Below, piece after piece: positions 3,936 through 48,005 of a stretch of DNA of 64,000 bases. This DNA comes from Escherichia coli (GTDB lineage Bacteria; Pseudomonadota; Gammaproteobacteria; Enterobacterales; Enterobacteriaceae): NCBI RefSeq assembly GCF_003991155.1, contig NZ_CP031293.1. One strand, written 5' to 3'. Below the pieces are notes generated by a model. That model did no database searches. It worked only from the letters and a program-made list of their open reading frames with translations, and was not told where the DNA came from. How positions within the stretch are numbered: position 1 is the first letter of the stretch; each line of letters opens with the position of its first letter. The translations under genes were made by a program, and so were the position numbers.

Positions 3936-3937
3936 GC

Positions 3938-5059: not shown

Positions 5060-5085
5060 GTCTTATTCCTCTGTATTTTTTGAAT

Positions 5086-5634: not shown

Positions 5635-5649
5635 CGTTTTCCCTTATAT

Positions 5650-6396: not shown

Positions 6397-6406
6397 GTTC
6401 TTATTC

Positions 6407-7624
6407 TTACCTCGTAATATTTAACGCTTTTCGCAAAATAAACGGACAGACGATTAAAAATGCATATTCCGGGCTAAATATCGAACCGGTAAAAAACAGC
6501 GATACCGGAGTAAAAAGATATAATTGCACGCGAAAATTGCGGTTATCACCAAAAGCGTTGATCATCATTTTTATCACTTTCCCCATGTACCACAGCGATA
6601 AAAACACTGCGAACCAGGAAAAATAAATAATCAGCAGATACAAACCATTGTCTATGGTTTTTCCGACATCCGCACCGTTAAATATTCCGAATGATGCGAC
6701 ATATTCATAAAGTGAGCCAAATCTGACTACACCGTCAATATGGGTCAAAGAATAACCGACCATCACCAGCGGACCGACAATACGATAATACGATGACGAA
6801 CCTTCCGTGCCTAAATCACCCAGACGGGTGGAAATATAAGGAAACGCGATTACCACACCAACCAGGAATACAGCCAGAGAAACCAATGCTAACGGTAACT
6901 TTTTCTTAATCGCCTCTTTATTCAGATATTGAAATGCCCACTCCAGCAAATAAAAAAGGATAAAGGTCATAACCCCTGAAAACGATCCGGATAATATTAT
7001 CCCTGCGAGAATCATAGCATCGGTTTTAGGCGTTTTGATACCAAACTGTTTGATGCTGAGCCAAATTGAGATTAATGCCAGAGCGAAAAATGCCGGTTCG
7101 AAATAAAGTGCTGTCGTGCGCTTGCCGCCGAATTTAATGAAATTCAGCACATAGCTGTTGCTGTAAATCAGATATTTCGAAATCGACTCCATAATACTGC
7201 TACCGCCGGTGAGGATAATTTGCGCCATCTCCACCGCCGCCAGCGCCACCACCAGCCCGACCACCAGATAAAAGAAACGTAATATCTTGCGATGGTTGTG
7301 TGGCGAAATTGTTTTAAAACGAATACTCCACACCATGCCAATAATGATCACAATATAGACAAACAGCATGGTTGAAGTGACGTATTTACTGGCATCCAAC
7401 GACTGACCAAACAGGTAGTTAAACGCCGTGAGTCCCGCACCAACCCCTAAGGCAATCATCAATTTTTTAACGTTGATGCGCTCTAAAAACAGCAGTAACA
7501 AGACGGGTAAAAAAGTGACGATGGTAATGGGGAAACTTTCGCCAAGCTGGGCGATTTTGACGTTAACCAGCAGGTAAATCAGCGGCAGCAGTAGGTAGCT
7601 ACAGATTCTGATAGAAGTTGACAT
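6407..7624 (-). CDS. wcaD: colanic acid polymerase (multi-TM)
   Basis: ORF-track entry is N-extended; start trimmed to [15 protein letters not shown]...; highly hydrophobic polytopic protein. Confidence 0.85.
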
Positions 7625-8816
7625 ACTCCTCCAGCATCTGTTGTCCACTGTAGGCGGCGCGGCTGCGTTGGCTAAACCCAGCCAGCGTGGTACCAAATAT
7701 CGCCTGCGCGATTTCCGGTTTGCTTAACTGCACCAGTTGCAGCACGTCTTCTTCGCTGACGGTTTTACCGCCGGATTTTTGCAGAACTTCCCGCGCCGCG
7801 TCGCTATGGGTGGCAATCACCGGCACGCCAATCGATAGCGCCTCACACAAAATCAGCGGGTAGTTATCGACGCGAGAACTGAATACCAGCGCATCCATCT
7901 GATTGAGCGCGCTCATCAACTTGCGCTTGTCAGTTTCAAAGCCGTGATTAACCACGTTGCCAGCGGTGAACGGCGAGAACTTACCAAAGGTATGCAGTTC
8001 AATTTTGTCGCCCAGCGCCATCATCTCACGTACCAGTTGCTGGTTAGTTTTGCCGTCGTAACGCAGATCATGCGCCACCACCGCGATTTTCGGCTTGTCC
8101 TGGGTTTCGCGCACCGGAGGCAAGTCCGCCAGAATCGCTTCGGTTGCCATATCAATACCGTTATTGATAATCCGGCAACGCCCTGGACCGTACAGACTAT
8201 TGAAAGCATCAGCCACATGCTGGCTGGGGGAAATAAACTGACAGCCCAGTGCCAGCATCTCGCGGAATAACTGGCGTTTACCCGCCACCAGCTGGTGCGC
8301 GCGATCAATCTTCACCGGTGGATAGTTATTTAAGGTCGGGCATTTCTGGCAGCCCGTTTTCCAGCCTTCGCAACCGTCGGTAAAGGCGCAGCGTCCGGTA
8401 ACGCTCCAGTGATCGTGTAACGTCCAGACCAGAGTGATATCCGGTTTATGGTTTTTCACTTTTTCGCAAAAGCGCACCACGCTCTTAAGATTCAACCAGT
8501 AGCTGTGCAGCACATGAAAATGCAGGACCACCGGACCCGGTGTGCGAGTAATGGTGCGATATAACTCATTGAAATTGCCGAACAGATCGCGATTAAACAG
8601 ACGAAACAACGCAATGTTCGCCATCGCGGTCATCCGCGGCGTATGTTTGATGACCTGCGGATAGTTTTGATGACTGACGCTCTCTTTGCCGCCTTTGCCG
8701 TAGCCGTAGACAAAATGTGACGCCAGCCCCTGTTGCAGCGCGCGCTGGTGGAGATCTAACGCCACACCTGCTGCCCCGCCTTCCGCCAGTCGCACATTGA
8801 ATTGCAGAATATTCAT
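7599..8816 (-). CDS. wcaC: colanic acid biosynthesis glycosyltransferase
   Basis: 405-aa ORF MNILQFNVRLAEGGAAGVALDLHQRA..., GT-B family. Confidence 0.9.
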   Translation of the reverse strand: MNILQFNVRLAEGGAAGVALDLHQRALQQGLASHFVYGYGKGGKESVSHQNYPQVIKHTPRMTAMANIALFRLFNRDLFGNFNELYRTITRTPGPVVLHFHVLHSYWLNLKSVVRFCEKVKNHKPDITLVWTLHDHWSVTGRCAFTDGCEGWKTGCQKCPTLNNYPPVKIDRAHQLVAGKRQLFREMLALGCQFISPSQHVADAFNSLYGPGRCRIINNGIDMATEAILADLPPVRETQDKPKIAVVAHDLRYDGKTNQQLVREMMALGDKIELHTFGKFSPFTAGNVVNHGFETDKRKLMSALNQMDALVFSSRVDNYPLILCEALSIGVPVIATHSDAAREVLQKSGGKTVSEEDVLQLVQLSKPEIAQAIFGTTLAGFSQRSRAAYSGQQMLEEYVNFYQNL

Positions 8817-9301
8817 TTAATTACCTTCACTCGCGCTTTTTCTCCCACCACCAGCGCGTTGTCCGGGACAGAGTCGAGCACCACGCTGCCCGCGCCCACG
8901 GTGACGTTGTTACCAAGCGTGATATCACCAAGAATAATGACGTTGGCACCGAGTTCGACGCCGTTGCCAATGTGTGGACATGCCATGTTATCGGCACCAC
9001 GATTGCCGATAGTGACGCCGTGACGAATGGTGAAATCATCCCCCGCGACCACGTTTTTATTGATCACCACGGCGTAACCGTGATGGATAGTGAAACGGCG
9101 GCCAATGGTCGCGGCGGCCTGGATTTCATAACCGAAAAAGCATTCGGTGATAATGCGATACAGCACCAGCAGCGGGGCCGCCCACAGATTGTTGAGGACG
9201 TTCTTTTTGCGCCACACCGAACAAAAATGAGCGACGCGATAGGCAAGAACCATGCAGCACGGACGTAAACTCCAGCTGTTGGCGCGCAGATCTTCCAGCA
9301 T
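8813..9301 (-). CDS. wcaB: colanic acid biosynthesis acetyltransferase
   Basis: 162-aa ORF with hexapeptide-repeat acetyltransferase pattern (serine acetyltransferase-like); 4-nt overlap with wcaC. Confidence 0.88.
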   Translation of the reverse strand: MLEDLRANSWSLRPCCMVLAYRVAHFCSVWRKKNVLNNLWAAPLLVLYRIITECFFGYEIQAAATIGRRFTIHHGYAVVINKNVVAGDDFTIRHGVTIGNRGADNMACPHIGNGVELGANVIILGDITLGNNVTVGAGSVVLDSVPDNALVVGEKARVKVIK

Positions 9302-9303
9302 CT

Positions 9304-10143
9304 TTAGCGCCCCCGAATACCATCAGCCAGACGTTTGCCGTTACGCACCGACAGCAGCGTCAGCAAAGTGCGCCAGGTCATGCGTTTATTGCGGATCTGG
9401 TAGAGGGTAAACAGCTGATATTTTTTGCTGGCGCGGTCGAATTTGTCTTTGTGCTTGCGGTAAAAGTGGAAGTATCCGGAGAATTTTTTCGGTGACGATG
9501 TGATCTGCATTTCACCATGATTGATATGCAGGATCTGCGTCGCCTCTTCCACTTTCCACGGTTCGCCGTACTCCACCACCATCCGCAGGAAGATGTCGTA
9601 ATCCTGTGCCGCTTTCAGTTTGGTATCGAACAAGCACTCTTTGAAACGCCACGCCCAGGTAAAGACCTGATTGCCAATAATATTGCGTTTGTAGAACAGG
9701 CGGCGTGAATACGGCGATTTGGGATACAGCGGCAAGCTTGCCGGTTGGGAATAGACTTCGCCCTGGCAAACGTAGTCGTTAGCGTACAAAAAGGCGTGAG
9801 TGACCAGTTGCTGTTTATGGGCGAGGAAGACGCTCAGGCGGTTGGGTGTCCATTCATCATCATCATCGATCCCGGTGATGTATTCCCCTTGCGCCAGCAT
9901 AATCGCCTGGTTACGTACCGCGCACGCCCCGCTGTTAATGTCGTTGTGAATGTAGGTAATACGCGGATCGTTGAGGGCGGTGACGTATTGTTGTAGTTGT
10001 TCCCAGGAGGTGGAGCAATCATCCACGATAATCATCTCCCAGTTGTTGTAGTCCTGGCGCAGGACCGATTTTATCGCCCGAATAGCCAGTTGTTGGCGGT
10101 TCCAGGTCGGCATATAGATTGAAATCAGCGGATTGTCTTTCAT
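9304..10143 (-). CDS. wcaA: colanic acid biosynthesis glycosyltransferase (GT2)
   Basis: 279-aa ORF, MKDNPLISIYMPTWNRQQLAIRAIKSVLRQ... GT2 N-terminus. Confidence 0.9.
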   Translation of the reverse strand: MKDNPLISIYMPTWNRQQLAIRAIKSVLRQDYNNWEMIIVDDCSTSWEQLQQYVTALNDPRITYIHNDINSGACAVRNQAIMLAQGEYITGIDDDDEWTPNRLSVFLAHKQQLVTHAFLYANDYVCQGEVYSQPASLPLYPKSPYSRRLFYKRNIIGNQVFTWAWRFKECLFDTKLKAAQDYDIFLRMVVEYGEPWKVEEATQILHINHGEMQITSSPKKFSGYFHFYRKHKDKFDRASKKYQLFTLYQIRNKRMTWRTLLTLLSVRNGKRLADGIRGR

Positions 10144-10169
10144 AGGTTGTTCTCCCGGCTTATGAGCTG

Positions 10170-10235
10170 GTTTGCTTGCCGGATGCGGCGTGAACGCCTT
10201 ATCCGGCCTACGGGGCGGTGCGAATGCAGGCGTCG
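10170..10235. repeat. REP/BIME palindromic element
   Basis: gccggatgcggcgtgaacgccttatccggcctac motif read directly between wcaA start and wzc stop. Confidence 0.75.
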
Positions 10236-12398
10236 TTATTTCGCATCCGACTTATATTCGTATTCGTAATAGCCATAATCCTGATACGCGCTGGCGCGGC
10301 GGAAGATGGAGTTCAAAATCACCCCTTTCACCGGAATACCGTTTTGCTCAAAGCGGCTCAGACTGGTTTCCACTTCTTTCAAGGTGTTGACCGCATAACG
10401 CGCCACCATTAACGTGGTTTCGACATGACGACCAACAATTGCCGCATCGGTCACTGCCAGAATCGGCGGCGTATCAATCAACACCAGGTCATAGTTTTTA
10501 CTCGCCCACTTCACCAGTTCGGCAAAGCGTTCGCTCATTAACAGTTCTGAAGGATTTGGCGGCACCTGACCGCGCGGGATCAGGTCAAATTTGGCAATAG
10601 AGGTCGGTTTAGCAGCGGTAGTAATATCGCCCTGTCCAATCAGAATTTCCGACAGGCCATTAACGTTATTAGTGCCCAACAGCTCGTGGGTGTAGCCTTT
10701 GCGCATATCGCAGTCGATCAACAACACCCGTTTATTGGTCTGGCTAATCACCGCCGCCAGGTTGGCGCAGACAAAGGTTTTACCGATTGACGGGCTAACC
10801 CCGGTCATCATCAACACATTGTTCTGCGCCTGCATCATCGCGAAGTGCAGACTGGTACGCAGACTGCGGATGGCTTCAATCGCCAGATCGGTTGGATTCC
10901 CCACCGCCAGTAGCTGGCTCTGTTTATAGCGTTTAATCCCTTTGATGGTTTTGACGCTATCGCGCGCTTTCTGCCATTCCGACAACGGGATGCTGGCATA
11001 GACACTGATACCGTGTTCTTCCAGCACCTGCGGGCTTTCGATGCCGCGATTAAACAACGAGCGCAGCAGCACACCCACGATAGAGAGCATCAGGCCAAGG
11101 ATAATCGCGCCGAGGATAATCAGCCCTTTCTTCGGTTTTAGCACGCCAGGCTGGGTGATTGCCGGGTCAACAATGCGCACATCGCCGACGGTGCTGGCTT
11201 CGGTGATTTTCAGCTCCTGCTCTTTATTCAGCAGTTGCATATAGACCTGTTGACCAGACTCGACATCGCGGGTCAGACGGACAATTTCCTGCTGGGTTTT
11301 CGGCATCGCCGTTACGCGACCGTTAAGTTTGGCTTTCTCTTCTTCCAGCGCCTGCCGTTTCTCCAGCAGCGTGCGATACGCCGGGTGAACTTTGGTGTAC
11401 AGCTTGGAGATTTCCGCTTCTTTAAAGGTCAGTTCGTTCAACTGCGCGTCGATGTTCACCATCGAATCGAGCACCGCTTTTGCTTCCAGCGGCAGATCAA
11501 CAGAATCTTTATCCTGACGGAAGGCATTCAGTTTGTTTTCGGCAACATCGAGGCGGCTACGTACTTCCGGTAACTGTTGCGCGAGGAAAGCGAGGCTTTT
11601 CGACGCTTCCGCCGATTTGCGCTCAATATTTTGTTCCTGATAGTTACGGGCGATGCTGTTAAGAATGTCGCGGATCTGTTCGCGATCTTCACCGGTATAA
11701 GTCAGGCTCAGTACGCCTGCGTCTTTGCCGTTCTCCGTTACCGTCAGGCTGTTTTGCAGTTGGTTGATCATCCCCAGCGTGGAGTATTTGGTGACGGTAA
11801 ACTCACTGCCCGGGCTGGCGTGAATGGCTTCAACCATCAGCGTGACGCCTTCTTTTTTCAGCATCTGGCCCGCTTGCCCACGGGCGCTAAAGCCGCCGTC
11901 GCTGCTCAGAGTGTAGTTTTTATCGTCCAGCACATTAAGCGTAAACACCTGATCCGCCATCTCTTTCGGGCGGTTAAAGGTGGTCACTTTTACCGTCTCG
12001 TTCTGGCGTCCCATCAGGCGATCCCAGCCCGCACCGAAAATAGGGAACGTGTTTTTGCTCACTGCAATATCGAGGTCGAGATCGTCCACCGTTTTACCAA
12101 GCACCAGACGCGAACGAATCAACTGGATCTCGGCGTCCGATGCTGGCGGTTTGTTGGCTAATGCCGAACCAATGTCCTGCACTAACGAATTGCCGCTGTT
12201 TTGCTCGATTTGTACCAGTGCGTCGGCACTATAAATCGGCGTGGCTAAGAAGGTGTAAACCACGGCACAGAGGGCAAATACGGCGGTGATGCCAATTACC
12301 CACCAGCGCGCTTCAATGACGGTGCCGACCAGGCGACCAATATCGATTTCATCACTGCCCGTTACCGGAGCGGCATGTTGTTTTACTTTTTCTGTCAT
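10236..12398 (-). CDS. wzc: tyrosine autokinase / polysaccharide co-polymerase
   Basis: Start trimmed to MTEKVKQHAAPVTGSDEID...; Walker A (GVSPSIGKT), C-terminal Tyr-rich tail (YQDYGYYEYEYKSDAK). Confidence 0.93.
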   Translation of the reverse strand: MTEKVKQHAAPVTGSDEIDIGRLVGTVIEARWWVIGITAVFALCAVVYTFLATPIYSADALVQIEQNSGNSLVQDIGSALANKPPASDAEIQLIRSRLVLGKTVDDLDLDIAVSKNTFPIFGAGWDRLMGRQNETVKVTTFNRPKEMADQVFTLNVLDDKNYTLSSDGGFSARGQAGQMLKKEGVTLMVEAIHASPGSEFTVTKYSTLGMINQLQNSLTVTENGKDAGVLSLTYTGEDREQIRDILNSIARNYQEQNIERKSAEASKSLAFLAQQLPEVRSRLDVAENKLNAFRQDKDSVDLPLEAKAVLDSMVNIDAQLNELTFKEAEISKLYTKVHPAYRTLLEKRQALEEEKAKLNGRVTAMPKTQQEIVRLTRDVESGQQVYMQLLNKEQELKITEASTVGDVRIVDPAITQPGVLKPKKGLIILGAIILGLMLSIVGVLLRSLFNRGIESPQVLEEHGISVYASIPLSEWQKARDSVKTIKGIKRYKQSQLLAVGNPTDLAIEAIRSLRTSLHFAMMQAQNNVLMMTGVSPSIGKTFVCANLAAVISQTNKRVLLIDCDMRKGYTHELLGTNNVNGLSEILIGQGDITTAAKPTSIAKFDLIPRGQVPPNPSELLMSERFAELVKWASKNYDLVLIDTPPILAVTDAAIVGRHVETTLMVARYAVNTLKEVETSLSRFEQNGIPVKGVILNSIFRRASAYQDYGYYEYEYKSDAK

Positions 12399-12400
12399 TC

Positions 12401-12844
12401 TTATACCTGCTCTGCGTTCAATGCCTGCGCCCACTGGCGGGCAGACCGTTCAAGTAATGTGTACACCGCTGCAAACGTTTCCCGGCTTTTGCGATACGGA
12501 TCGGGGATTTCACATTCGTTATCCCAGTGACCAAACAGCATCACTTTGCCGCGCATCTCAGGTGCCATCTCGCATAAGCGTTCGATATGGCGCTTTTCCA
12601 TGGTCAAAATCAGGTCGTAGTTGCGACACAGACGGCGGCTGATTTGCCGTGCACAGTGACCTTCCAGAGACAGTTGATGTTCTGCGGCGACGCTGATAGC
12701 AGTAGGGTCAGCGCCCTTACCGACCAGCGCGCCGAGTCCAGCGGACTCCACTTTCAGCTCCGGGTGATAACGTTGCAGTAAGCGTTCCGCCGTCGGGGAG
12801 CGGCAAATATTGCCGACACAGACAACTAAGATGTTGTTAAACAT
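12401..12844 (-). CDS. wzb: low-molecular-weight protein-tyrosine phosphatase
   Basis: 147-aa ORF with CX5R P-loop (VCVGNICRSP). Confidence 0.93.
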   Translation of the reverse strand: MFNNILVVCVGNICRSPTAERLLQRYHPELKVESAGLGALVGKGADPTAISVAAEHQLSLEGHCARQISRRLCRNYDLILTMEKRHIERLCEMAPEMRGKVMLFGHWDNECEIPDPYRKSRETFAAVYTLLERSARQWAQALNAEQV

Positions 12845-12849
12845 GACGA

Positions 12850-13989
12850 TTACCAGTTATGAATGTCGCTGGCTGTATCCGTCATGTAACGGACACCGCT
12901 AATAGTTGGCAGCAACTGATTGATCAGACGGTTCCAGCGGGAAACCGGGGCGGTGGTGACATACACCACGTCATAAGGTTGCAGGCGGAATTCTGTCGCC
13001 ATCACCAGCGACGTGGCATCGGACATATCCAGCTGGTAGATATTGGCAATCTTGCCGTTACGCCCGCCCTCGCCTTTCAGCGGACGAATGACAAAGATGC
13101 CGCTGGCGTTGGAGGTGGTCATGTCGATGCCTTCAGCATTGCCCAGGGCTTCAGTCAGGGTCATGCCGCTAAAGTCCATTTTCAGGGTGCTCTGTTTCTT
13201 CACTTCACCCATCACAAACACTTTCAGATCATCATTACGTGGCACGTAAAGAATATCGCCGGGGTAAAGCAGTCGGTTCTGATTGAGGTCGCCGTTTTGC
13301 ATCAGCGCCTGCAAAGAAATGCGTTCTTCACGACCATTGTGTGTTAGCACTACGTTGCGCCAGTCAGCGGTGTCGGTCAGGCCACCTGCGGCGTTGATGG
13401 CGTCGAGAATGGTCAGTGGCACGTTGGTGATCGCCTGTTGACCGGATTTATTCACCTGACCGGAGATATAGGCTTTTTGCGAGCGGAAGGCGGCGATATT
13501 AACGTCCACCTGCGGGTCAGCGATGTACGTCGCTAAGCGCCCGGTAATATCACTGCGGATTTCAGCGAGCGTTTTCCCCACGACGTGAACCTTGCCGATA
13601 TACGGGTAGAACATGGTGCCGTCAGGCTGTACCCAGTTGCCGGTGTCGCTGGAGCTGCGGTACTGACCGGCTGGCGTGGTGAGTTCCGGGTGATCCCAGA
13701 CGGTGACATTAAGAACGTCCCCCGGCCCGACGCGATACTGATAATTCGCGATCTCACTTTCCAGCGTCATATTGGGGCGCGCTACATTCGGGCGTGGGCG
13801 TAATTGATCAATCAGGCGCGGGGTCAACGGATAAACATTCACCATTTTGTCGAGATCGAAATCAGCGTCCTGCTGTTTGATGACGTCTTTCCCCATCGTC
13901 GACATATTGCTGCCCGGAAGTACTGTGCAACCGCTTATCAAGGTTACTGACACCAATAATGGCATCAATTTCATTTTGGATTTCATCAT
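12850..13989 (-). CDS. wza: outer-membrane polysaccharide export lipoprotein
   Basis: 379-aa ORF; lipoprotein signal peptide with lipobox (LISGC). Confidence 0.93.
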
Positions 13990-14167
13990 TGTTTATTTAT
14001 CACTTTGGCAGAGTAATTATCCTGTGCACTATTAATAGCAATGTCGCCATGCACATTTACCTTGCAGTTAATTGAATAAAAATTTAACTGGCATCAGTCC
14101 TAAAAAAATTGATTTCATCCGCAAGCTATTGACAGAATAATTCAGACTGGTCTTTCAGGCATCCAGA

Positions 14168-14179
14168 CACGCTACCGCC
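14168..14179 (-). promoter_or_regulatory. ops element (GGCGGTAGCGTG) in wza leader
   Basis: Reverse complement of 14168-14179 is GGCGGTAGCGTG, the RfaH-recruiting ops consensus, upstream of wza on the minus strand. Confidence 0.7.
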
Positions 14180-14647
14180 CCTGGCTTTTTAGCTACCAAT
14201 ACACTGATTTAGCTTAATTTTTAAAACCCTCTCAACATACAGTCGTTGATGAGAAAGGGTTATTGCGGAAATTAACTTCCGAATATAAGGTGACATTATG
14301 GTAATTGAATATTGGCTCTCCAATAATGCAGGAGGAAGTGTTACAGCTAACGGAATAGCAGGCAAGGTAACAATTCGGCAATTGGCTATTTTTAAGAATT
14401 ATATTAAGTGTCATTCAATATGGTTTTTAGGAGTTTCTTTAGGTTGACAATATTTAATATAGTGTCTCCACATGCGATATTTCTTAAATAATGTTTTATT
14501 ATTACCACTTTTAATTCAGGGATAATGTGAGGTTATAACCCTCAAATAATATGAGATAAATAGTGCTGCAACATTGCATTTTTGCCCCGATTTATCCATG
14601 ATCGAATTGTGACATTTGTCATACAACGAATAGGTTTTGTACTTACT

Positions 14648-16231
14648 ATGGAATGGATTGCCGATCCGTCTATCTGGGCTGGATTAATCACGCTGATTGT
14701 GATCGAACTGGTCCTCGGCATTGATAACCTGGTCTTTATTGCCATCCTCGCCGAAAAACTACCGCCGAAGCAGCGCGACCGCGCACGGGTTACCGGGCTG
14801 CTGCTGGCGATGTTAATGCGCCTGTTACTGCTGGCGTCAATCTCCTGGCTGGTCACCCTGACTCAACCGCTGTTCAGCTTCCGCTCGTTTACCTTTAGCG
14901 CCCGCGACTTAATCATGCTGTTTGGTGGTTTCTTCCTGCTGTTCAAAGCCACGATGGAGCTGAACGAACGGCTGGAAGGGAAAGACAGCAATAACCCCAC
15001 GCAACGCAAAGGTGCGAAGTTCTGGGGGGTGGTGACACAAATTGTGGTACTGGACGCCATCTTCTCACTCGACTCGGTGATTACCGCCGTCGGGATGGTC
15101 GACCATTTACTGGTCATGATGGCCGCCGTCGTTATCGCTATCAGCCTGATGTTGATGGCCAGCAAGCCGTTAACGCAATTTGTTAACAGTCACCCGACGA
15201 TCGTTATTCTCTGCTTAAGCTTCCTGTTGATGATTGGCTTTAGCCTGGTGGCAGAAGGTTTCGGCTTCGTCATTCCGAAAGGCTACCTGTACGCTGCTAT
15301 TGGTTTCTCGGTGATGATCGAGGCGCTCAATCAGTTGGCTATCTTTAACCGGCGACGTTTTCTTTCCGCTAACCAGACGCTGCGCCAGCGAACTACCGAA
15401 GCGGTAATGCGCCTGTTAAGCGGGCAAAAAGAAGATGCGGAACTGGATGCCGAAACCGCGTCTATGCTGGTGGATCATGATAATCAGCAAATCTTTAATC
15501 CGCAGGAACGGCGGATGATTGAGCGGGTACTTAATCTTAACCAGCGTACCGTCAGCAGCATTATGACGTCGCGCCACGATATTGAGCATATCGATCTCAA
15601 CGCACCGGAAGAAGAAATCCGCCAGTTGCTGGAGCGAAATCAGCACACGCGACTGGTGGTTACTGATGGCGATGACGCGGAAGATTTGCTCGGTGTTGTT
15701 CACGTTATCGACCTGTTACAACAGTCACTGCGCGGCGAACCGCTCAACCTGCGGGTGTTGATTCGCCAGCCGCTGGTGTTCCCGGAAACCTTGCCGTTGT
15801 TACCTGCCCTGGAGCAGTTCCGTAATGCCCGCACACACTTTGCTTTTGTAGTGGATGAGTTTGGCTCGGTGGAAGGGATTGTGACATTAAGTGACGTCAC
15901 AGAAACCATTGCCGGTAACTTACCGAATGAAGTGGAAGAGATCGACGCCCGCCATGATATTCAGAAGAATGCCGACGGTTCCTGGACGGCGAATGGTCAT
16001 ATGCCGCTGGAAGATCTGGTGCAATATGTGCCGCTGCCGCTGGATGAAAAACGTGAATATCACACCATTGCCGGGCTATTGATGGAATATTTGCAGCGTA
16101 TTCCAAAACCTGGCGAAGAAGTTCAGGTGGGGGATTATTTGCTTAAAACGTTGCAGGTGGAAAGCCATCGCGTGCAGAAGGTGCAAATTATTCCGCTACG
16201 TAAGGATGGCGAGATGGAGTACGAAGTGTGA
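14648..16231 (+). CDS. yegH: TerC-family inner membrane protein with CBS and CorC/HlyC domains
   Basis: ORF-track entry trimmed to [13 protein letters not shown]... (527 aa); TerC-like TM region, CBS pair, C-terminal transporter-associated domain. Confidence 0.88.
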
Positions 16232-16236
16232 TAAAA

Positions 16237-16276
16237 CATCAAATGCGCAGGTTCAAACTGCGCATTTGATTTATAC
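16237..16276 (+). terminator. Rho-independent terminator after yegH
   Basis: Perfect inverted repeat catcaaatgcgcag / ctgcgcatttgat with 7-nt loop followed by T-rich run. Confidence 0.6.
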
Positions 16277-16305
16277 AAAATTTAGTATAATCTAAGGATG
16301 GAGTA

Positions 16306-16644
16306 ATGAGAAAAAAGCTGGCTTTTCTTGATACCAGTCTTGACGATTTACGCGCATTTCCAGAATCGTCTCGACAGGAAATTGGCTATCAACTCGACAG
16401 GATCCAACAAGGGTTAAACCCATACGACTGGAAACCTTTTTCAACTATCGGCCCTGGTGTGCGAGAGATTCGTACTCGCGATGCTGATGGGATCTATCGC
16501 GTCATGTATATCGCAAAATTTGAAGAAGCGGTTTACGTATTGCATTGTTTTCAAAAGAAAACACAGACTACCAGTCAATCGGATGTTGATTTAGCCAAAC
16601 GACGCTATAAAGAACTTGTTCAGGAGCGGAAAAATGAAAATTGA
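16306..16644 (+). CDS. HigB-like toxin (Gp49-like, RelE/ParE superfamily)
   Basis: 112-aa ORF; C-terminal pattern YVLHCFQKKTQTTSQSDVDLAKRRYKEL typical of Gp49-like toxins; toxin-first order, 11-nt overlap with downstream HTH gene. Confidence 0.65.
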   Translation: MRKKLAFLDTSLDDLRAFPESSRQEIGYQLDRIQQGLNPYDWKPFSTIGPGVREIRTRDADGIYRVMYIAKFEEAVYVLHCFQKKTQTTSQSDVDLAKRRYKELVQERKNEN

Positions 16645-16924
16645 AACCTTTGATAGTGTGTGGGATGCGGTGAGTGACACCCCTGAACAAGCGGAAAATA
16701 TGCGGATCCGTGCCGAACTTGTAACGATCATTAATAACTGGATTGAACAACAAGGGTTTAGCCAGGCTCAGGCAGCGTCTGCTTTAGGGGTCACTCAACC
16801 TCGCATATCTGAACTTGCCAGAGGTAAGATCCAGATCTTTAGTATCGATAAATTGATCACCATGATGGCTCATGCAGGATTGCATATTCAACGTATTGAA
16901 ATTCAATATCCACATGCTGCTTAG
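16634..16924 (+). CDS. HigA-like antitoxin (XRE-family HTH)
   Basis: Start at ATG 16634 preceded by aggagcgg SD; HTH segment QAQAASALGVTQPRISELARGK. Confidence 0.65.
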   Translation: MKIETFDSVWDAVSDTPEQAENMRIRAELVTIINNWIEQQGFSQAQAASALGVTQPRISELARGKIQIFSIDKLITMMAHAGLHIQRIEIQYPHAA

Positions 16925-16935
16925 TGCTATAAACA

Positions 16936-16965
16936 CAGATGGCGACAAATTGACGCCGCCATCTG
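16936..16965. terminator. bidirectional hairpin between convergent higA-like gene and asmA
   Basis: Inverted repeat cagatggcg ... cgccatctg read directly. Confidence 0.45.
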
Positions 16966-16976
16966 CATAACTTGTC

Positions 16977-18830
16977 TTACATCTTCTCCAGCAACTTCTT
17001 CACATCTTTGCCATTGCGGGAATCTTTATTCCGCTCGGCCCAGTCATTCAGGCGACGTTTCGCTTCATCCTGTAGATGTTTGCGCAGTAACTGATCCACT
17101 TGCAGGCTGTAATTGAGTTGCTGCCAGTTGCCATAAACCCGCAGCGGTACTGGCGTTTCTTTGAGGAAATCAATCAGTTTGCTTTCTCCGTTCCAGCCAC
17201 CAATCACACGAATGTCAAACTGGGTGTCGCAGGTTTGATCTGCCAGATTCAACATGCCTTCCCCTGTCAGCGCCAGCACTGGCGATTGACCTTGCATGTC
17301 GTTTAACGTCACGACGCCATCCTTCAACGTCAAATCGGTGGTAAAGCGGTCAAGACGCGTTACGTTATCGAAGTTTTCAGCGGCCTTCACATCACCACCA
17401 TTACGTTCTACCGCTTGCTGAATCATCTGCTGGAAGTTCATCCCTTCCATGCGCGTGTCGGTCATTTCGACATGTGCCTGTCCTTGCCAGTTATGGCGGA
17501 ATGCGTCGGCATCTATGTCAGCACCGGAGAAATCACCAGCCAGTGACATCTTTCCGGTCAACGAAATCGGATAGTTAAACGCCTTCAGAATGGTACCAAT
17601 CTCAACGTTTTCCAGCCGTGGCTGGAAGTTTATCCGCGGATTTATTGATGTCGCGTCCAGCGTGCCCGGCAGCGAAACCTGTCCACCGTTAAGCTTGCCC
17701 TGCAGTTGAGTAATTTCCAGCAAACCCGACTTGTTGGTCATTTGCGTGGCAACGTCTGTAAAATTCATTCCGCGCCAGCGCACGTTACTGGCCTGCAACA
17801 AAATATCAGCCGTAAAGCCATGCAATCCCTGATAGGCCGGTTCATCAATACGCGAAGAAATGACCGGGCGCGGCAACGTGGATTGGCTCTGCCCTTGCTG
17901 CGCGGCACCGTTTTCACCGTTCGCTGTTTCTTTAAGCGGGATGAGGTTGTCAAGATTCAGTTGCGGGAATTGCAGTCTCAACTGCCATTCCGGTTTCTCT
18001 GTCAACGTGACCTGTGCTTGCCCGCTCAGCGTACTGTCATTGGCGGTCAAACTAATTTGGTTAAATGAAAGGCGTTTATGTGACTCCTGCCACTGGGCCT
18101 GGAAACTCCCCTGCCCCTGAATACCTTGTTTTGGTAAATCGGCACCCTGCAACTGCCAGTTAATTTGTTCAATAGCCGCCGTTAAATCATGCGGATAATC
18201 AGAAGCATCTACCGTACCGTTAAGGGATATCGTGAGGTCGCGCTGATCGCGATTAACCCGCCCGGAGAACTCAAATGAGCCACGATGTTGGGGATCTTGT
18301 TCCATTTGCAGGCGGATATTGCGGATTGTCACCTGCTCGTCATCTTCATGCTGGAACACCAGCACGCTGTCCGCCATCTTAAGACTGGATATATCAAACG
18401 ACCATCCGCGATCGTCTGACAGATCCGGCAAGGTATTGTCGCGCGGTGCAACCGGAGCGTCTTCACTGCGCACCGCTTCCGTCTGCGGCGTCAGTTGGAT
18501 CACAGCCCCTTTTAGCATCACCTGCTTAACGCTCAGTTGATGACTCAGTAGTGGTAAAAGCGCCACGTCCAGACGCATGTTGTCGGCGCGAACCAGTGGC
18601 TGGCTCGCGCCCTGGGCGGTGAGAGACATTCGCCCGGAGAGGATACTAAGCTGCGGCCAGACGTGCCAACGCAGTGGCCCGTCGAGCTGCAATTGATAAC
18701 CGCTACGTGCAGCAACTTGCTTGACCATATAGTCGCGGAAATCATTCGGATTCACCAGCAACACTAACGCAGATAACCCGGCCACCAGCACGACCAGGAG
18801 TATCATCAGCGTCGTCAGAAATCGTCTCAT
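16977..18830 (-). CDS. asmA: outer-membrane assembly protein AsmA
   Basis: 617-aa ORF with N-terminal TM anchor (MRRFLTTLMILLVVLVAGLSALVLL). Confidence 0.9.
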   Translation of the reverse strand: MRRFLTTLMILLVVLVAGLSALVLLVNPNDFRDYMVKQVAARSGYQLQLDGPLRWHVWPQLSILSGRMSLTAQGASQPLVRADNMRLDVALLPLLSHQLSVKQVMLKGAVIQLTPQTEAVRSEDAPVAPRDNTLPDLSDDRGWSFDISSLKMADSVLVFQHEDDEQVTIRNIRLQMEQDPQHRGSFEFSGRVNRDQRDLTISLNGTVDASDYPHDLTAAIEQINWQLQGADLPKQGIQGQGSFQAQWQESHKRLSFNQISLTANDSTLSGQAQVTLTEKPEWQLRLQFPQLNLDNLIPLKETANGENGAAQQGQSQSTLPRPVISSRIDEPAYQGLHGFTADILLQASNVRWRGMNFTDVATQMTNKSGLLEITQLQGKLNGGQVSLPGTLDATSINPRINFQPRLENVEIGTILKAFNYPISLTGKMSLAGDFSGADIDADAFRHNWQGQAHVEMTDTRMEGMNFQQMIQQAVERNGGDVKAAENFDNVTRLDRFTTDLTLKDGVVTLNDMQGQSPVLALTGEGMLNLADQTCDTQFDIRVIGGWNGESKLIDFLKETPVPLRVYGNWQQLNYSLQVDQLLRKHLQDEAKRRLNDWAERNKDSRNGKDVKKLLEKM

Positions 18831-18851
18831 GGTATCCTCAATGGGCCTGAA

Positions 18852-19433
18852 TTAGTCTTTATCGATTCGGCTGGCTACCGCGCCCTGCTGGTTGCGATAT
18901 TTCGCATCTTCACGGCGGTTGTAAGGTCGCGCCGCCGGGCCGGAAAGCGGCTCAAAGCTCAGCGCACCAATTAACATGCCCGGACGCAGCGCCAGCGGCA
19001 GCTTACCGGAGTTGTAGAACTCCAGCACAATGCAGCCAGACCAGCCCGGATCGATGCGGTGCGCGGTGACGTGCACCATCAGCCCCAGACGCGCCAATGA
19101 GGAACGCCCGTCCAGCCAGCCCACCAGATCGGCTGGCAGCGTCACCGACTCCAGCGTCACCGCCAGCGCCAGCTCTCCTGGGTGAAGATAGAACGCCTCG
19201 CTTTCATCGAGAACGATCTCATCGCTCATCACGCGGTCAAGCGCGGCGCTCACTTCATCTTTGGGACCGCTCAGATCGATAAACGCTGCCGTGTGACCAC
19301 GGAAGGTACGAAATTTATTGCCCAGGCGCACATCCACCGTCGCGCCGTTAATACGCTCCACTGGCGGACGTGGGTTGATCGACAAACGGCCTTCATCAAG
19401 CCAGGCTTCAATATCTCGGTCACACAGACGCAT
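18852..19433 (-). CDS. dcd: dCTP deaminase
   Basis: 193-aa [22 protein letters not shown]..., canonical Dcd. Confidence 0.95.
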
Positions 19434-19524
19434 GGCATTTTCTCCTTTCGAGCATCACTCCCTTAACGCCAATTACGTCAAGGGCATACCAGGTTATCAC
19501 TGAACGGTACACAATTTATCAAGC

Positions 19525-20166
19525 TTATTCAAAGAACTGACTTATTTTCGCTTTCAATATATCGATCGCGATGCGGTTTTTCCCGCCGCGCGGCACGATA
19601 ATGTCCGCATATTGTTTAGAAGGCTCAATGAATTGCAGGAACATCGGGCGCACGGTTTTTTGATATTGCGCCATCACTGAATCCATTGAACGCCCACGCT
19701 CGTTAACGTCACGCTTGATGCGGCGCATCAGGCAGATATCCAGCGGGGTATCAACGAAAATGGAGAAGTTAAGTTCGTCACGCAAACGCGCATCCGTTAG
19801 CAGCAAAATGCCTTCGAGAATGATGACTTTCTTCGGCTCAACCGTCACCGTTTCTTTCATACGCGTATGTTCAACATAGCTGTAAACCGGCAGGTCAATG
19901 GCCGAGCCGCGTTTCAACGCTTGTAAATGCTCAAGCAACAGGCTGTGATCCATCGCGCTGGGATGGTCGTAGTTGGTCTTAACGCGTTCTTCCATCGACA
20001 GATGGCTTTGATCTTTGTAATAGCAGTCTTCGGGAATTACGCCGATGTGTTCATCACCGACTTGCTCACGTAATTCACGATAAAGGGTACTGGCAATAAG
20101 ACTCTTGCCGGAAGCCGATGCGCCAGCGATACCGATAATGACGCACTGATGAGACTGATCAGTCAT
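19525..20166 (-). CDS. udk: uridine/cytidine kinase
   Basis: ORF-track entry trimmed to [22 protein letters not shown] (Walker A); 213 aa. Confidence 0.93.
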
Positions 20167-42915: not shown

Positions 42916-43168
42916 TTACGATGCCGGGCGTGGGTTGTTGGCGTCCGGCTTTATATCAAAACAACTCTTAGTTATTGATAATTAAGATTAACCTCCGCCA
43001 TTAAAATAGTGGGCACTGACGAGCACTCGTTGTGCTTTCTTTGTTTACCATCCCATACTTATCTTCCTGAACATGTTCATATGCCAAAATATCTTCTAAT
43101 ACTTTCGTGACGCTATCCGGTTTATGAAATACACTGATGTAAGATTTTTACTTACAGGCGGGTGTAAA

Positions 43169-43420
43169 ATGGCCAGAACGATGACGGTTGATCTCGGCGA
43201 TGAGTTGCGTGAATTTATCGAGTCCTTAATTGAATCCGGCGACTATCGCACCCAAAGCGAAGTGATCCGTGAGTCGCTGCGCTTACTTCGAGAAAAGCAA
43301 GCAGAGTCTCGCCTGCAAGCGTTACGTGACATGCTCGCTGAAGGGTTGAGTAGTGGTGAAGCTCAGCCGTGGGAAAAGGACGCGTTTTTACGGAAGGTGA
43401 AAGCAGGGATAAGGAAATAA
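43169..43420 (+). CDS. ParD-like antitoxin (ribbon-helix-helix)
   Basis: MARTMTVDLGDELREFIESLIESGDYRTQSEVIRESLRLL... typical of ParD/COG3609-type antitoxins; the start is uncertain (alternative in-frame starts at 43124 and 43181). Confidence 0.65.
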   Translation: MARTMTVDLGDELREFIESLIESGDYRTQSEVIRESLRLLREKQAESRLQALRDMLAEGLSSGEAQPWEKDAFLRKVKAGIRK

Positions 43421-43421
43421 T

Positions 43422-43718
43422 GTGCGTACTATAAAACTCATGCCAAAAGCCAATGAGGATTTAGAAGGCATCTGGTATTACAGCTATCACCATTTCGGCG
43501 AACCACAAGCCGACAGATATGTGGAACATCTTTCAGACGTTCTCCAGATTCTGAGTAACAATAATATAGGTACGCCCAGACCTGAATTAGGCGAAGGTAT
43601 TTTTGTTCTTCCTTTTGAACGCCACGTAATTTATTTCCTGCAATCGCCAGAGGAAATTATCGTCATTCGTATCCTTAACCAAAACCAGGACGCCTCCAGA
43701 CATTTACACTGGAGCTAA
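43422..43718 (+). CDS. ParE-like toxin (RelE/ParE superfamily)
   Basis: GTG start 2 nt after antitoxin stop with aagga SD; N-terminal LMPKANEDLEGIWYY motif characteristic of ParE. Confidence 0.65.
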   Translation: MRTIKLMPKANEDLEGIWYYSYHHFGEPQADRYVEHLSDVLQILSNNNIGTPRPELGEGIFVLPFERHVIYFLQSPEEIIVIRILNQNQDASRHLHWS

Positions 43719-43820: not shown

Positions 43821-45182
43821 ATGTTTAAACCGGAACTCCTTTCCCCGGCGGGAACGCTGAAAAATATGCGTTACGCTTTCGCTTATGGCGCAGATGCTGT
43901 TTATGCGGGCCAGCCGCGTTACTCCCTGCGTGTGCGCAACAACGAATTCAACCACGAAAATCTCCAGCTCGGCATCAATGAAGCCCACGCGCTGGGGAAA
44001 AAGTTTTATGTCGTGGTCAACATTGCACCGCACAACGCCAAGCTGAAAACCTTTATCCGTGACCTGAAACCGGTGGTGGAGATGGGGCCGGATGCGCTGA
44101 TTATGTCCGATCCAGGGCTGATTATGCTGGTGCGCGAGCACTTCCCTGAAATGCCGATCCACCTCTCGGTGCAGGCTAACGCCGTGAACTGGGCGACGGT
44201 GAAATTCTGGCAGCAAATGGGACTGACCCGCGTGATCCTCTCTCGCGAGCTGTCGCTGGAAGAGATTGAAGAGATCCGTAATCAGGTGCCGGATATGGAG
44301 ATCGAGATCTTCGTTCACGGTGCGCTGTGCATGGCCTACTCCGGTCGCTGCCTGCTCTCTGGCTATATCAACAAGCGCGACCCGAACCAGGGCACCTGCA
44401 CCAACGCCTGCCGCTGGGAGTACAACGTCCAGGAAGGGAAAGAAGATGACGTTGGCAACATCGTGCACAAGTACGAGCCGATTCCGGTGCAAAATGTTGA
44501 GCCGACGCTGGGCATCGGCGCGCCAACCGACAAAGTGTTTATGATCGAAGAAGCTCAGCGTCCGGGCGAGTATATGACTGCGTTTGAAGATGAGCACGGC
44601 ACTTACATCATGAACTCGAAAGATCTGCGCGCTATCGCCCACGTTGAACGCCTGACCAAAATGGGCGTGCATTCGCTGAAAATCGAAGGTCGTACAAAAT
44701 CTTTCTACTATTGCGCACGCACCGCGCAGGTTTACCGTAAAGCTATCGATGACGCAGCTGCGGGAAAACCATTCGATACCAGCCTGCTGGAAACTCTGGA
44801 AGGTCTGGCGCATCGTGGCTATACCGAAGGTTTCCTGCGTCGTCATACTCACGACGATTATCAGAACTACGAATACGGTTATTCAGTTTCTGACCGCCAG
44901 CAGTTTGTTGGTGAGTTTACCGGTGAGCGCAAGGGCGACCTCGCGGCGGTAGCGGTGAAAAATAAATTCTCCGTTGGCGACAGCCTTGAGCTGATGACGC
45001 CGCAAGGGAACATTAACTTTACCCTTGAGCATATGGAAAACGCCAAAGGCGAAGCAATGCCGGTCGCACCGGGCGATGGTTATACTGTGTGGATCCCGGT
45101 GCCGCAGGATCTTGAGCTAAATTACGCGCTGCTGATGCGTAATTTCTCCGGGGAAACCACGCGTAACCCCCACGGTAAGTGA
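43821..45182 (+). CDS. yegQ: U32-family peptidase-like protein (rRNA hydroxylation-associated)
   Basis: 453-aa ORF MFKPELLSPAGTLKNMRYAFAYGADAVYAGQPRYSLR... Confidence 0.92.
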   Translation: MFKPELLSPAGTLKNMRYAFAYGADAVYAGQPRYSLRVRNNEFNHENLQLGINEAHALGKKFYVVVNIAPHNAKLKTFIRDLKPVVEMGPDALIMSDPGLIMLVREHFPEMPIHLSVQANAVNWATVKFWQQMGLTRVILSRELSLEEIEEIRNQVPDMEIEIFVHGALCMAYSGRCLLSGYINKRDPNQGTCTNACRWEYNVQEGKEDDVGNIVHKYEPIPVQNVEPTLGIGAPTDKVFMIEEAQRPGEYMTAFEDEHGTYIMNSKDLRAIAHVERLTKMGVHSLKIEGRTKSFYYCARTAQVYRKAIDDAAAGKPFDTSLLETLEGLAHRGYTEGFLRRHTHDDYQNYEYGYSVSDRQQFVGEFTGERKGDLAAVAVKNKFSVGDSLELMTPQGNINFTLEHMENAKGEAMPVAPGDGYTVWIPVPQDLELNYALLMRNFSGETTRNPHGK

Positions 45183-45266
45183 TTAATTTCGATTATTTTT
45201 CCCGGATGGAAAATTCTTAGAAACCGATCACATACAGCTGCATTTATTAAGGTTATCATCCGTTTC

Positions 45267-45353
45267 GCTGAAAAACATAACCCATAAAATGCTAGCTGTA
45301 CCAGGAACCACCTCCTTAGCCTGTGTAATCTCCCTTACACGGGCTTATTTTTT
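45267..45353 (+). ncRNA. cyaR: CyaR (RyeE) Hfq-dependent sRNA
   Basis: 87 nt gctgaaaaacataacccataaaatgctagctgtaccaggaaccacctcc...cacgggcttattttttt matches the CyaR sequence as I recall it, ending in a terminator hairpin plus U-run. Confidence 0.85.
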
Positions 45354-45511
45354 ATGCATAAGCCCTATCTCTGGTAACCGTCTTCCATTGACCACATCGA
45401 TAGAATCTCCCTTCATAGCACGATGCCTTTCACTTATTGGCATCGTGCTCGCACAGGTTCCGGTTACGCACAGCCAGAACGCGCATGTTTGACGCTTACC
45501 AAAAAATATTC

Positions 45512-45829
45512 TCACTCTCCACATTTGAATGTCAGACGAGCGACGCCATGTAATCCTGCACCTTCTGTCTTCAATTTAACTATCTGCATTTTTTTGCCCT
45601 GTGTAACACAGAAATGAACTGCATCATTTTTTACTATATTTTCTGCACCAGATATTCTACCCCTGGCTAAAGAAGCTTCGGCTTCGGTGTAGTATTGGTT
45701 ATCGAGTTTACGCTGAATATTACTTTTATATGCAAGACCAAATTTACCGATACTTGTCTCATCATTATGTACAGCACACCCAGACATAAGAAAAACACTA
45801 ATTAATGATATAGCAGCTATCTTTTTCAT
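45512..45829 (-). CDS. yegR: lipoprotein-like small protein
   Basis: ORF-track entry trimmed to MKKIAAISLISVFLMSGC... (signal peptide with lipobox), GGGGAAGG SD upstream. Confidence 0.8.
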   Translation of the reverse strand: MKKIAAISLISVFLMSGCAVHNDETSIGKFGLAYKSNIQRKLDNQYYTEAEASLARGRISGAENIVKNDAVHFCVTQGKKMQIVKLKTEGAGLHGVARLTFKCGE

Positions 45830-46244
45830 CTTACCTTCCCCCATTAAATACCAACGACACGCTCTGGTGTTTAAATATAATAATGGCATGATTATTATAA
45901 TTGAATAGGATTATAATAAATGTTCTGTACAACATTTCCTACATAAGTAGGAATTACATACACGGATGCCCTTCCGGGTAACCCCATGGGGGGGGGGTAA
46001 TATATTTTTAATAGTAGATTGAAGATGCCACTGTTTAGTTGAATATTAGGTATATGCTCTTTTTTGAAATTTATCGGTGGCTGCCGTTAATATTCGCTGT
46101 TCCCATTGCAAGCTCCTGGTGGTAACCACTGAATCCCCATACCTGAACTGACTTTTTATCCTCCGACTTTCATCCTGTTCTGACTCCACCTTTTCTTTTC
46201 TGCTCTACACTATCTACAGACCAATCATAAAGGCACATACGATC

Positions 46245-47144
46245 ATGGCAGAATTTCCCGCCAGCTTACTGATTCTTAATGGCAAAAGTACTGACAATCT
46301 ACCCTTGCGCGAAGCAATTATGCTGTTGCGTGAGGAAGGAATGACGATCCATGTGCGGGTCACCTGGGAGAAAGGCGATGCCGCACGATATGTAGAGGAG
46401 GCCCGGAAGTTGGGCGTCGCAACGGTGATTGCCGGTGGTGGCGATGGCACCATTAATGAAGTTTCTACGGCGTTGATTCAGTGTGAGGGGGATGACATAC
46501 CCGCGCTGGGAATTTTGCCATTAGGAACCGCCAATGATTTTGCCACCAGTGTAGGGATTCCTGAGGCACTGGATAAGGCGCTGAAACTGGCAATTGCCGG
46601 TAACGCCATTGCAATAGATATGGCGCAGGTCAACAAACAAACCTGTTTTATTAATATGGCGACAGGCGGATTTGGGACGCGTATTACCACAGAAACGCCG
46701 GAAAAATTAAAAGCCGCGCTGGGTGGCGTCTCTTACATCATTCATGGCTTAATGCGCATGGATACTCTGCAACCGGACCGTTGTGAAATCCGCGGTGAAA
46801 ACTTTCACTGGCAAGGTGACGCCCTGGTCATTGGTATTGGTAACGGGCGTCAGGCTGGTGGCGGTCAGCAATTGTGCCCGAACGCGTTAATTAACGATGG
46901 CTTGCTGCAACTGCGCATTTTTACCGGCGATGAAATTCTTCCGGCTCTCGTATCAACCTTAAAATCTGACGAAGATAACCCGAATATTATCGAAGGCGCT
47001 TCGTCGTGGTTTGATATACAAGCCCCACACGAAATCACTTTTAATCTTGATGGCGAACCGTTGAGCGGACAAAACTTTCATATTGAAATACTTCCGGCGG
47101 CGTTGCGTTGTCGATTACCACCGGATTGTCCATTATTGCGTTAA
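46245..47144 (+). CDS. yegS: lipid kinase (DAG-kinase catalytic family)
   Basis: 299-aa [21 protein letters not shown]... GGDGT motif ([10 protein letters not shown]). Confidence 0.92.
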
Positions 47145-47225: not shown

Positions 47226-48005
47226 CTACACCGTAATTAATTTCACTCGTGTCTTCTGCAATGCCAGTTTATCCACCTCTGACACAGCATCGTCGGTAAT
47301 AATAATGTCAATTTTTTCGATTGGCAGTACCTGATTAAAACCGCGACGATTAAATTTCGATGAATCGAGAACGGCAATCACTTTATTTGCGGCTGTGACC
47401 ATCGCCCCGCTAATCGAATAGCCTTCATTAAAGGTCGTAATACCATTAACCGCATCAATACCATCAGCACCGACAAACATTAAATCGGCATTAATATCCT
47501 GCAATGAACGCTCAGCAATGGAGCCATGCATCGAGCGCGTTTTATGGCGGACCGTGCCACCGCAGACGACCAGAGTAATGTCTTTATTTTCGGAAAGGGC
47601 AAATGCTGCCGGGAGACTGTTGGTAATCACCGTGATATTTTTGGCGGTCATTAATCCTTCGGCGATAAGCATTGTCGTACTTCCGCTGTCGAGAATAACG
47701 GTCATCCCTTCGTGGATCATTTTGACTGCCGCCTGCGCTATTCTGTTTTTTGGCGCGCTGGCGAGCTGAAATCGCTCTTTAAACCCGACTTCCTGGGTCT
47801 CGGTTTCACTATTACCGGACATTATTTTCGCCGCACCGCCATGAAAGCGCGTAACCACGCCTTTTTGTTCGAGAAAGCGCAAATCGGCACGGATTGTCGC
47901 TTCCGAGGCAGCAAATACTCCCGCCAGATCCTGAACAAGCACGGTTCCCTGTTCATTCACTAATTGGATGATCTTATTCCTTCGCTCGAATGAATTCATC
48001 GTCAT
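47226..48005 (-). CDS. gatR: DeoR-family repressor of galactitol operon (intact)
   Basis: Uninterrupted 259-aa ORF with N-terminal HTH and DeoR sugar-binding domain; the true start may be the third codon (MNSFERR...). Confidence 0.88.
   Translation of the reverse strand: MTMNSFERRNKIIQLVNEQGTVLVQDLAGVFAASEATIRADLRFLEQKGVVTRFHGGAAKIMSGNSETETQEVGFKERFQLASAPKNRIAQAAVKMIHEGMTVILDSGSTTMLIAEGLMTAKNITVITNSLPAAFALSENKDITLVVCGGTVRHKTRSMHGSIAERSLQDINADLMFVGADGIDAVNGITTFNEGYSISGAMVTAANKVIAVLDSSKFNRRGFNQVLPIEKIDIIITDDAVSEVDKLALQKTRVKLITV

Follow-up and report, generated by a model that had tools for sequence, protein, structure and literature searches.

In Escherichia coli K-12 the small RNA gene cyaR is separated from yegR by a remnant of a P2-like prophage, whereas in the strain analysed here only a short spacer lies between the two genes. 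This difference raises two questions: whether the remnant was lost from this strain, and what the DNA is that adjoins cyaR in its place. Both were addressed in a stretch of 64,000 nucleotides of the E. coli contig NZ_CP031293.1 (assembly GCF_003991155.1), hereafter the window, which is 100% identical to strain 2016C-3878. The CyaR (RyeE) gene occupies positions 45265-45350 on the plus strand and matches Rfam family RF00112 over its full length, model positions 1-85, with 100.7 bits against a gathering score of 47 (E 9.6e-20); cyaR is annotated at the equivalent position in MG1655. A terminator scan placed the intrinsic terminator hairpin of CyaR at 45318-45345 (+), with an 11-pair stem and a TATTTTTTAT tail. 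The T-run that follows the hairpin extends to 45353, and the structure line of the Rfam model agrees with the hairpin.

The neighbours of this sRNA gene were assigned from their open reading frames and from annotation. On the left is yegQ/trhP (43821-45182, +), a 453-aa ORF that carries this annotation in matching E. coli records and that precedes cyaR in almost every Enterobacterales locus examined. On the right, yegR (45512-45829, -) encodes a predicted lipoprotein of 105 aa; its annotation as YegR comes from record NZ_CP029747.1, to which the window is 100% identical, and its stop codon is at 45512-45514 (-). Beyond yegR are yegS (46245-47144, +), a lipid kinase gene and the ancestral right neighbour of cyaR, and gatR (47226-48005, -). 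The gatR gene is unbroken in the window and split by IS3E in MG1655. A second strain difference was found immediately upstream of yegQ/trhP, where positions 43124-43718 encode a ParD antitoxin (PF03693, E 4e-19) and a ParE toxin (PF05016, E 7e-14). The gap between yegP and trhP is only 146 bp in MG1655, and the ParD/ParE module is therefore a strain-variable insertion.

The original prediction, which was made from the sequence alone, put about 160 bp between the CyaR terminator and the stop codon of yegR; the distance is 158 bp (45354-45511), and this interval contains no ORF with a homologue. The same prediction placed ogrK and yegZ in this interval of K-12, concluded that the present strain appears to have no such remnant, and named an alignment with MG1655 as the check. 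In MG1655 (NC_000913.3) the annotation runs from trhP and cyaR through the 629-bp 'cryptic prophage PR-X', which comprises ogrK and the yegZ pseudogene, to yegR and yegS, and the K-12 order assumed in the prediction is thus correct. The alignment was run, and the K-12 spacer is not equally short: the gap between cyaR and yegR is 788 bp in MG1655, and the extra 629 bp, which are missing from the window, correspond to the annotated PR-X (ogrK plus yegZ, the gene D' pseudogene).

At the nucleotide level the window equals MG1655 exactly from the yegQ stop codon through 45354. The extra DNA of K-12 is bounded by two copies of TACACGGGCTTATTTTTT(T)A that lie 629 bp apart, the annotated length of PR-X, and colinearity is regained at the second, partial copy of the terminator (TACACGGGCTTATTTTTTTA). 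To the right of this second repeat, an alignment of 196 bases of the window with MG1655 contained 6 mismatches and one extra T. The two sequences differ by about 4.5% over 1.4 kb, so the window strain is not a close relative of K-12. Neither ogrK nor D' was found between cyaR and yegR of the window in the MG1655 alignment, and the best tblastn match to Ogr had an E value of 0.77. The junction of D' with the truncated core (TACACGGGCTTATTTTTTTA) is not in the window, which has the empty junction at this position instead.

The K-12 insert is arranged as expected for a P2 prophage trimmed from within: the core and P arm come first, ogr next, and the 3' end of D last. The deletion runs into the right-hand core, and the remnant retains no integrase and only a truncated right core. 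A clean excision to the sequence of the window is therefore not available to it. The window and PR-X share the chromosomal site, the attachment core and a left junction that is identical through 45354, whereas the 629 bp, ogrK, the D' pseudogene and the truncated second core are absent from the window. That the window lacks the remnant is not to be read as loss; the derived state is that of K-12. To judge by its title, a 1992 paper by Barreiro and Haggard-Ljungquist reports a remnant of a P2-like phage in derivatives of K-12.

Positions 45327-45354 of the window, which overlap the 3' half of the CyaR terminator, are identical in 28 of 28 bases to phage P2 at its annotated 27-nt attP core (NC_001895, 24355-24382), a core that in P2 has int on one side and ogr plus gene D on the other. 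Genomes in which the site is occupied break exactly at this core (at query positions 428 and 454, and at position 52 of the empty-junction query). In the window the host flanks are contiguous around a single intact core, and there were no matches to Int or Ogr. At the level of sequence, these results confirm the interval as an unoccupied, intact attachment site (attB) for P2-like phages.

With the help of IHF, the P2 tyrosine integrase recombines attP with attB by strand exchange within their common core. As the phage and host cores are identical, integration would rebuild the CyaR terminator at the left junction and leave cyaR intact, and the left junctions of K-12 and of lysogens are identical to each other, in agreement with such rebuilding. 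The site in the CyaR terminator, which we take to be locI (the locI of E. coli C being presumably the same locus), would be expected still to accept P2, judging from the identity of the core and from natural lysogens at the same sequence. We detected no difference between the window and the unoccupied P2 site at cyaR, as listed for Crooks and presumably present in E. coli C: the core of the window is identical to that of P2 attP and lies at the 3' end of cyaR, and no prophage is present. The genome paper of E. coli W lists 'cyaR RNA' among the P2 insertion sites, and Table 2 of that paper assigns to it Wphi2 in W, 'ogr-D'' in K-12, P2*B in B and '-' in Crooks (PMC3032704). The presence/absence polymorphism at this P2 site is thus already published and known.

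The 3' half of the CyaR terminator stem itself differs among lineages, reading TACACGGG in E. coli and P2, TACGCAGG in E. albertii and in one further non-coli Escherichia locus (L124), and TACACAGG in E. coli SCPM-O-B-8794 (L031), a species-representative genome. Integration replaces the part of the core that lies on the phage side of the crossover, and therefore some of these stem differences among Escherichia lineages might be phage-derived.

The spacer to the right of the core was then compared with the arms of P2 attP. Positions 45366-45400 align with the P arm of P2, the arm-binding region of the integrase, with 29 of 36 identities, and include the exact 15-mer CATTGACCACATCGA that is common to P2. 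The alignment scored 38; the highest scores reached by chance were 27 among 2,000 shuffles and 26 among 2,981 random genomic segments. The putative vestige lies 16 nt nearer to the core than the corresponding sequence does in P2, and the gap falls in a stretch that the P2 record annotates as an IHF site. In a multiple alignment it aligned with attP or attL of four Peduoviruses of E. coli (P2, P22H4, P24C9 and 9W) and of prophages of Citrobacter and Buttiauxella, and positions 45373-45400 keep one arm repeat of the TGTGGTCA type. Just beyond the vestige, at 45404-45413 (+), the initial 10 nt of the core (AATCTCCCTT) recur exactly; just two copies of this 10-mer occur in the 64-kb window where 0.01 would be expected, and the second copy is possibly the edge of a former junction. 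By these alignments the 158-bp spacer is not neutral host DNA, carrying as it does a P-arm vestige and a second partial copy of the core.

The remainder of the spacer contains a perfect 11-bp hairpin with an 11-nt loop (45417-45449), located some 65 nt beyond the stop codon of yegR, with a predicted energy of -22.7 kcal/mol and a z score of -5.9 on the yegR strand; its stem is unchanged in MG1655. We infer that it is a structure of the yegR 3'-UTR. It was considered as an intrinsic terminator of yegR and rejected, as it has no U-tail and the terminator scan made no call there. In E. coli SCPM-O-B-8794 the sequence 3' of cyaR is a different, fuller P-arm-like sequence that keeps the IHF-site stretch and leads into the right half of the spacer known from E. 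coli. That locus ends 240 nt past cyaR, and its last 40 nt read as a diverged C-terminus resembling that of YegR.

The extent of the DNA associated with these sequences was evident from the relatives of E. coli. Scanning species-representative genomes with a pattern yielded 120 cyaR loci. By tblastn, yegS was found downstream of cyaR in 78 loci from other genera, and in 48 of the 78 its alignment begins no more than about 150 bp from cyaR. Among the scanned cyaR loci, tblastn detected YegR in only two, both E. coli records of the K-12 type, and in none from outside E. coli. Two non-coli Escherichia loci (L122 and L124), whose YegS proteins are 94-95% identical to that of the window, gave the boundaries of the additional DNA: homology with the window stops at 45353 or 45351 and restarts at 46164. 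Positions 46164-46244 (+), which directly follow the CyaR T-run in these two loci, are therefore listed here as ancestral cyaR-yegS intergenic DNA. The block of about 810 bp between the boundaries (45354-46163) has a GC content of 0.33-0.39, against 0.50-0.57 in its flanks. Within it, the AT-rich intergenic region of yegR and yegS carries a homopolymer of ten G residues (45988-45997, +). The length of this tract varies between strains, being G10 in the window, G5 in MG1655 and in strain R2, and G7 in ST2747, and such variation could affect the divergent promoters.

The right end of the block also resembles P2. In a multiple alignment, positions 46103-46131 matched the P' side of a P2-type attP, from the int stop codon to the core; the match to P2 is colinear, with 21 of 30 identities and a z score of 6.3, a level that was not reached by any of 19,650 random segments. 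The next positions, 46132-46158, gave 20 of 28 identities with one gap when aligned end to end with the 28-nt core, a similarity that taken alone is of modest significance (p about 0.002-0.008), and would represent a degenerate second core copy, that is, a decayed attR. Over the 58-nt P2 segment that joins the two (the core and the 30 nt to its left) there were 41 identities (z 7.8), and 0 of about 5,000 random segments were as good; this signal required the alignment to be fixed at the block edge, and a free local alignment of the P' arm of P2 with the yegR-yegS intergenic region gave no significant score (p about 0.45). The block is thereby flanked by direct repeats of the core, intact at 45327-45354 and degenerate at 46132-46158, and the arm sequences lie inside both of its ends in the orientation of a modern lysogen. 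Coding remnants of P2 Int or Ogr were not found in 45300-46250 by tblastn at permissive thresholds (best E 0.28).

A parallel to this arrangement was found in E. albertii NBRC 107761, the type strain of that species. The cyaR-yegS interval of this strain (L006, 4906-8413) contains a P-arm vestige, an IS fragment and cdtABC, the operon of the cytolethal distending toxin, and a well-preserved P2-type attR adjoins the ancestral cyaR-yegS spacer on the right. In alignment, the attR of E. albertii and the degenerate core of the window share one register. The two species thus share the insertion point, the left core with a P-arm vestige, the P'-side sequence with a core on the right, and an interior that holds only cargo genes. 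They differ in preservation, as the attR of E. albertii retains a 61-point local match to P2 and that of E. coli is heavily decayed, and in cargo, which is a toxin operon with an IS fragment in E. albertii and yegR in E. coli.

Because of the similarities at both ends, the absence of the block from relatives and the parallel in E. albertii, we read 45354-46163 as an old P2-type integration. The DNA to the right of the core is itself probably phage-delivered, a P2-type remnant far older than that of K-12. Taken together, the window would hold an empty and intact P2 site, the K-12 remnant would derive from a deleted prophage, and 45354-46163 would probably be an older P2-type scar; we give this joint reading a probability of roughly 0.9. 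Under it, the AT-rich block of about 810 bp (the spacer, yegR and the region upstream of yegR) would be an insertion specific to E. coli and its close relatives, placed exactly at the core and left by an ancient P2-type integration from which all phage genes were lost. Selection on the CyaR terminator would have preserved the left core unaltered, and this core would now serve newer P2-like phages. In K-12, a P2-like prophage would have integrated there and then been almost entirely deleted, leaving ogrK, yegZ (the 3' end of gene D) and the truncated right core in 629 bp. Like most E. coli, the window strain would never have fixed the K-12 event, and its cyaR is joined directly to the DNA that in K-12 lies right of the remnant.

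We infer this order of events, and the arrival of yegR with the phage, from the arrangement of the present sequences. A more specific account, which we hold to be likely with less assurance than the joint reading, is that the E. coli P2 site is the left junction of an ancient and nearly fully eroded P2-type prophage, that yegR is its sole surviving gene, and that the gap has been colonised repeatedly in a nested manner. The ancient yegR block would have come first, followed by ogrK-D' or full prophages in some lineages, and in E. albertii cdtABC would occupy the site. No evidence that contradicts the empty site was found. Against the older scar stands the result that no phage genes or pseudogenes were recognised inside the block in the Int, Ogr and YegR searches.

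The origin of yegR bears on an alternative, namely that the locus records two histories: the yegR block arrived by another route, and only the first 50 bp or so of the spacer stem from a later P2-like prophage that was nearly fully deleted, as a reduced counterpart of the K-12 remnant. A search of 50,697 phage records with YegR gave two matches only, both to records with host flank. The phage records ON470606.1 (yegR, yegS and gatR) and AY639599.1 (yegQ and the K-12 remnant) carry E. coli chromosomal flank and therefore give spurious phage matches for host genes. YegR had no match in the local copy of Pfam and is assigned to family PF27694 in precomputed Pfam data. Its homologues in other enterics (46-81% identity) lie in unrelated, non-P2 contexts and sometimes next to IS elements. 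For the distant homologues (P0069, P0072, P0049, P0028 and P0020) a link to P2 or cyaR was sought in the genomic contexts and none was found; these contexts were an IS-rich region, mug/rpoD, a MerR-family gene, and glutaminase and nitroreductase genes. As YegR homologues thus travel without P2, yegR may have entered the block independently.

Many E. coli strains carry further DNA beside yegR. Strain R2 and the host flank of ON470606 (L003) have an additional 170 bp immediately beyond the yegR stop codon (after window position 45506; L140, 908-1077), and several other E. coli genomes have an insert of similar size there, which is absent from the window strain and from K-12. Within the 170-bp segment is an ORF of 41 aa, of which 37 aa align at 40% identity (E 1e-6) with the N-terminus of a lipoprotein of about 110 aa, the product of the gene that follows yegR-like genes in other enterics (L134). 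Since the segment encodes an N-terminal fragment of this second lipoprotein, the block would once have held a two-gene cassette, and the cassette may have its own history.

The contexts of the YegR homologues suit the account with two histories, as does the second AATCTCCCTT copy, which, coming just after the P-arm vestige, resembles a collapsed pair of attL and attR. The locus of SCPM-O-B-8794, in which a different and fuller P-arm-like sequence stands on the same right half of the spacer, points the same way, and the P-arm vestige could derive from a later, separate visit of P2 and not from the event that brought yegR. Such an account leaves unexplained, however, the P'-side and core vestige at the right edge of the block and the coincidence of the block boundaries with the core, and we regard it as unlikely.

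Still less probable is that the locus is pristine host DNA and that the resemblance of the spacer and of 46103-46158 to the arms of P2 attP is coincidental or convergent. The P2-arm-like stretches are indeed short (35 and 58 nt), and no phage gene is left inside the block. The two similarities are nevertheless independent of each other, colinear and correctly oriented, and they lie at both ends of a block that is precisely absent from relatives. No random segment, in samples of 2,981 to 19,650, scored as well as the arm similarities, and E. albertii has the same architecture in a better preserved form. We therefore consider a chance origin very improbable.

To determine the frequency of each state of the site, 5,426 complete E. 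coli genomes were queried with short sequences that span the junctions. Of these genomes, 4,207 have the empty junction, as in the window, and the examples listed come from many hosts and sources. The D'-core junction of K-12 was present in 356, and all 60 of the carriers sampled were K-12 laboratory derivatives (e.g. MG1655, C600, J53, DH5alpha, DH1 and NCM3722). The empty junction is the ordinary state of the locus and that of the majority, and the K-12 reference is the unusual strain. Descent of the window strain from a K-12-like ancestor, with loss of the ogrK-yegZ remnant by deletion or excision, is scarcely credible, for although the 19-20 nt direct repeats on either side of the K-12 remnant could in theory recombine and so remove it exactly, the remnant lacks an integrase, the window is well diverged from MG1655, and the two junctions are distributed among E. 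coli genomes as just described.

About 860 genomes split exactly at the core. The one that was inspected, ST2747, carries a full P2-like prophage, in which a P2-type integrase, C, cox and the replication endonuclease adjoin yegR, and the phage record ON470606 with its host flank has the same layout. The full prophages at cyaR (in ST2747, Wphi2 of E. coli W and ON470606) share with the window the core and the sequence of the right junction and spacer; they have about 30 kb of phage genes between two cores where the window has its single intact core. A P2-like prophage also follows an E. coli cyaR on a 9.7-kb contig of a metagenome-assembled genome labelled Collinsella sp. (L118). This prophage is 96.5% identical to P2 ogr-D over 1.5 kb, and the contig is almost certainly mis-binned.

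The window and K-12 thus differ in a way that is commonplace among strains, at a prophage integration site already described in the literature. For annotation pipelines this means that ogrK and yegZ are not to be expected outside the K-12 lineage, and the locus can be used for strain typing, the site being either empty, occupied by the K-12 remnant or occupied by a full prophage. With its perfect P2 core, the strain should be open to lysogeny by P2-like phages at cyaR. The older scar, if correctly read, would provide a likely origin for the orphan gene yegR, which is of modest evolutionary interest. It would also make this locus a case in which an sRNA terminator that doubles as a phage core has been preserved through successive integrations while the phage DNA around it decays.
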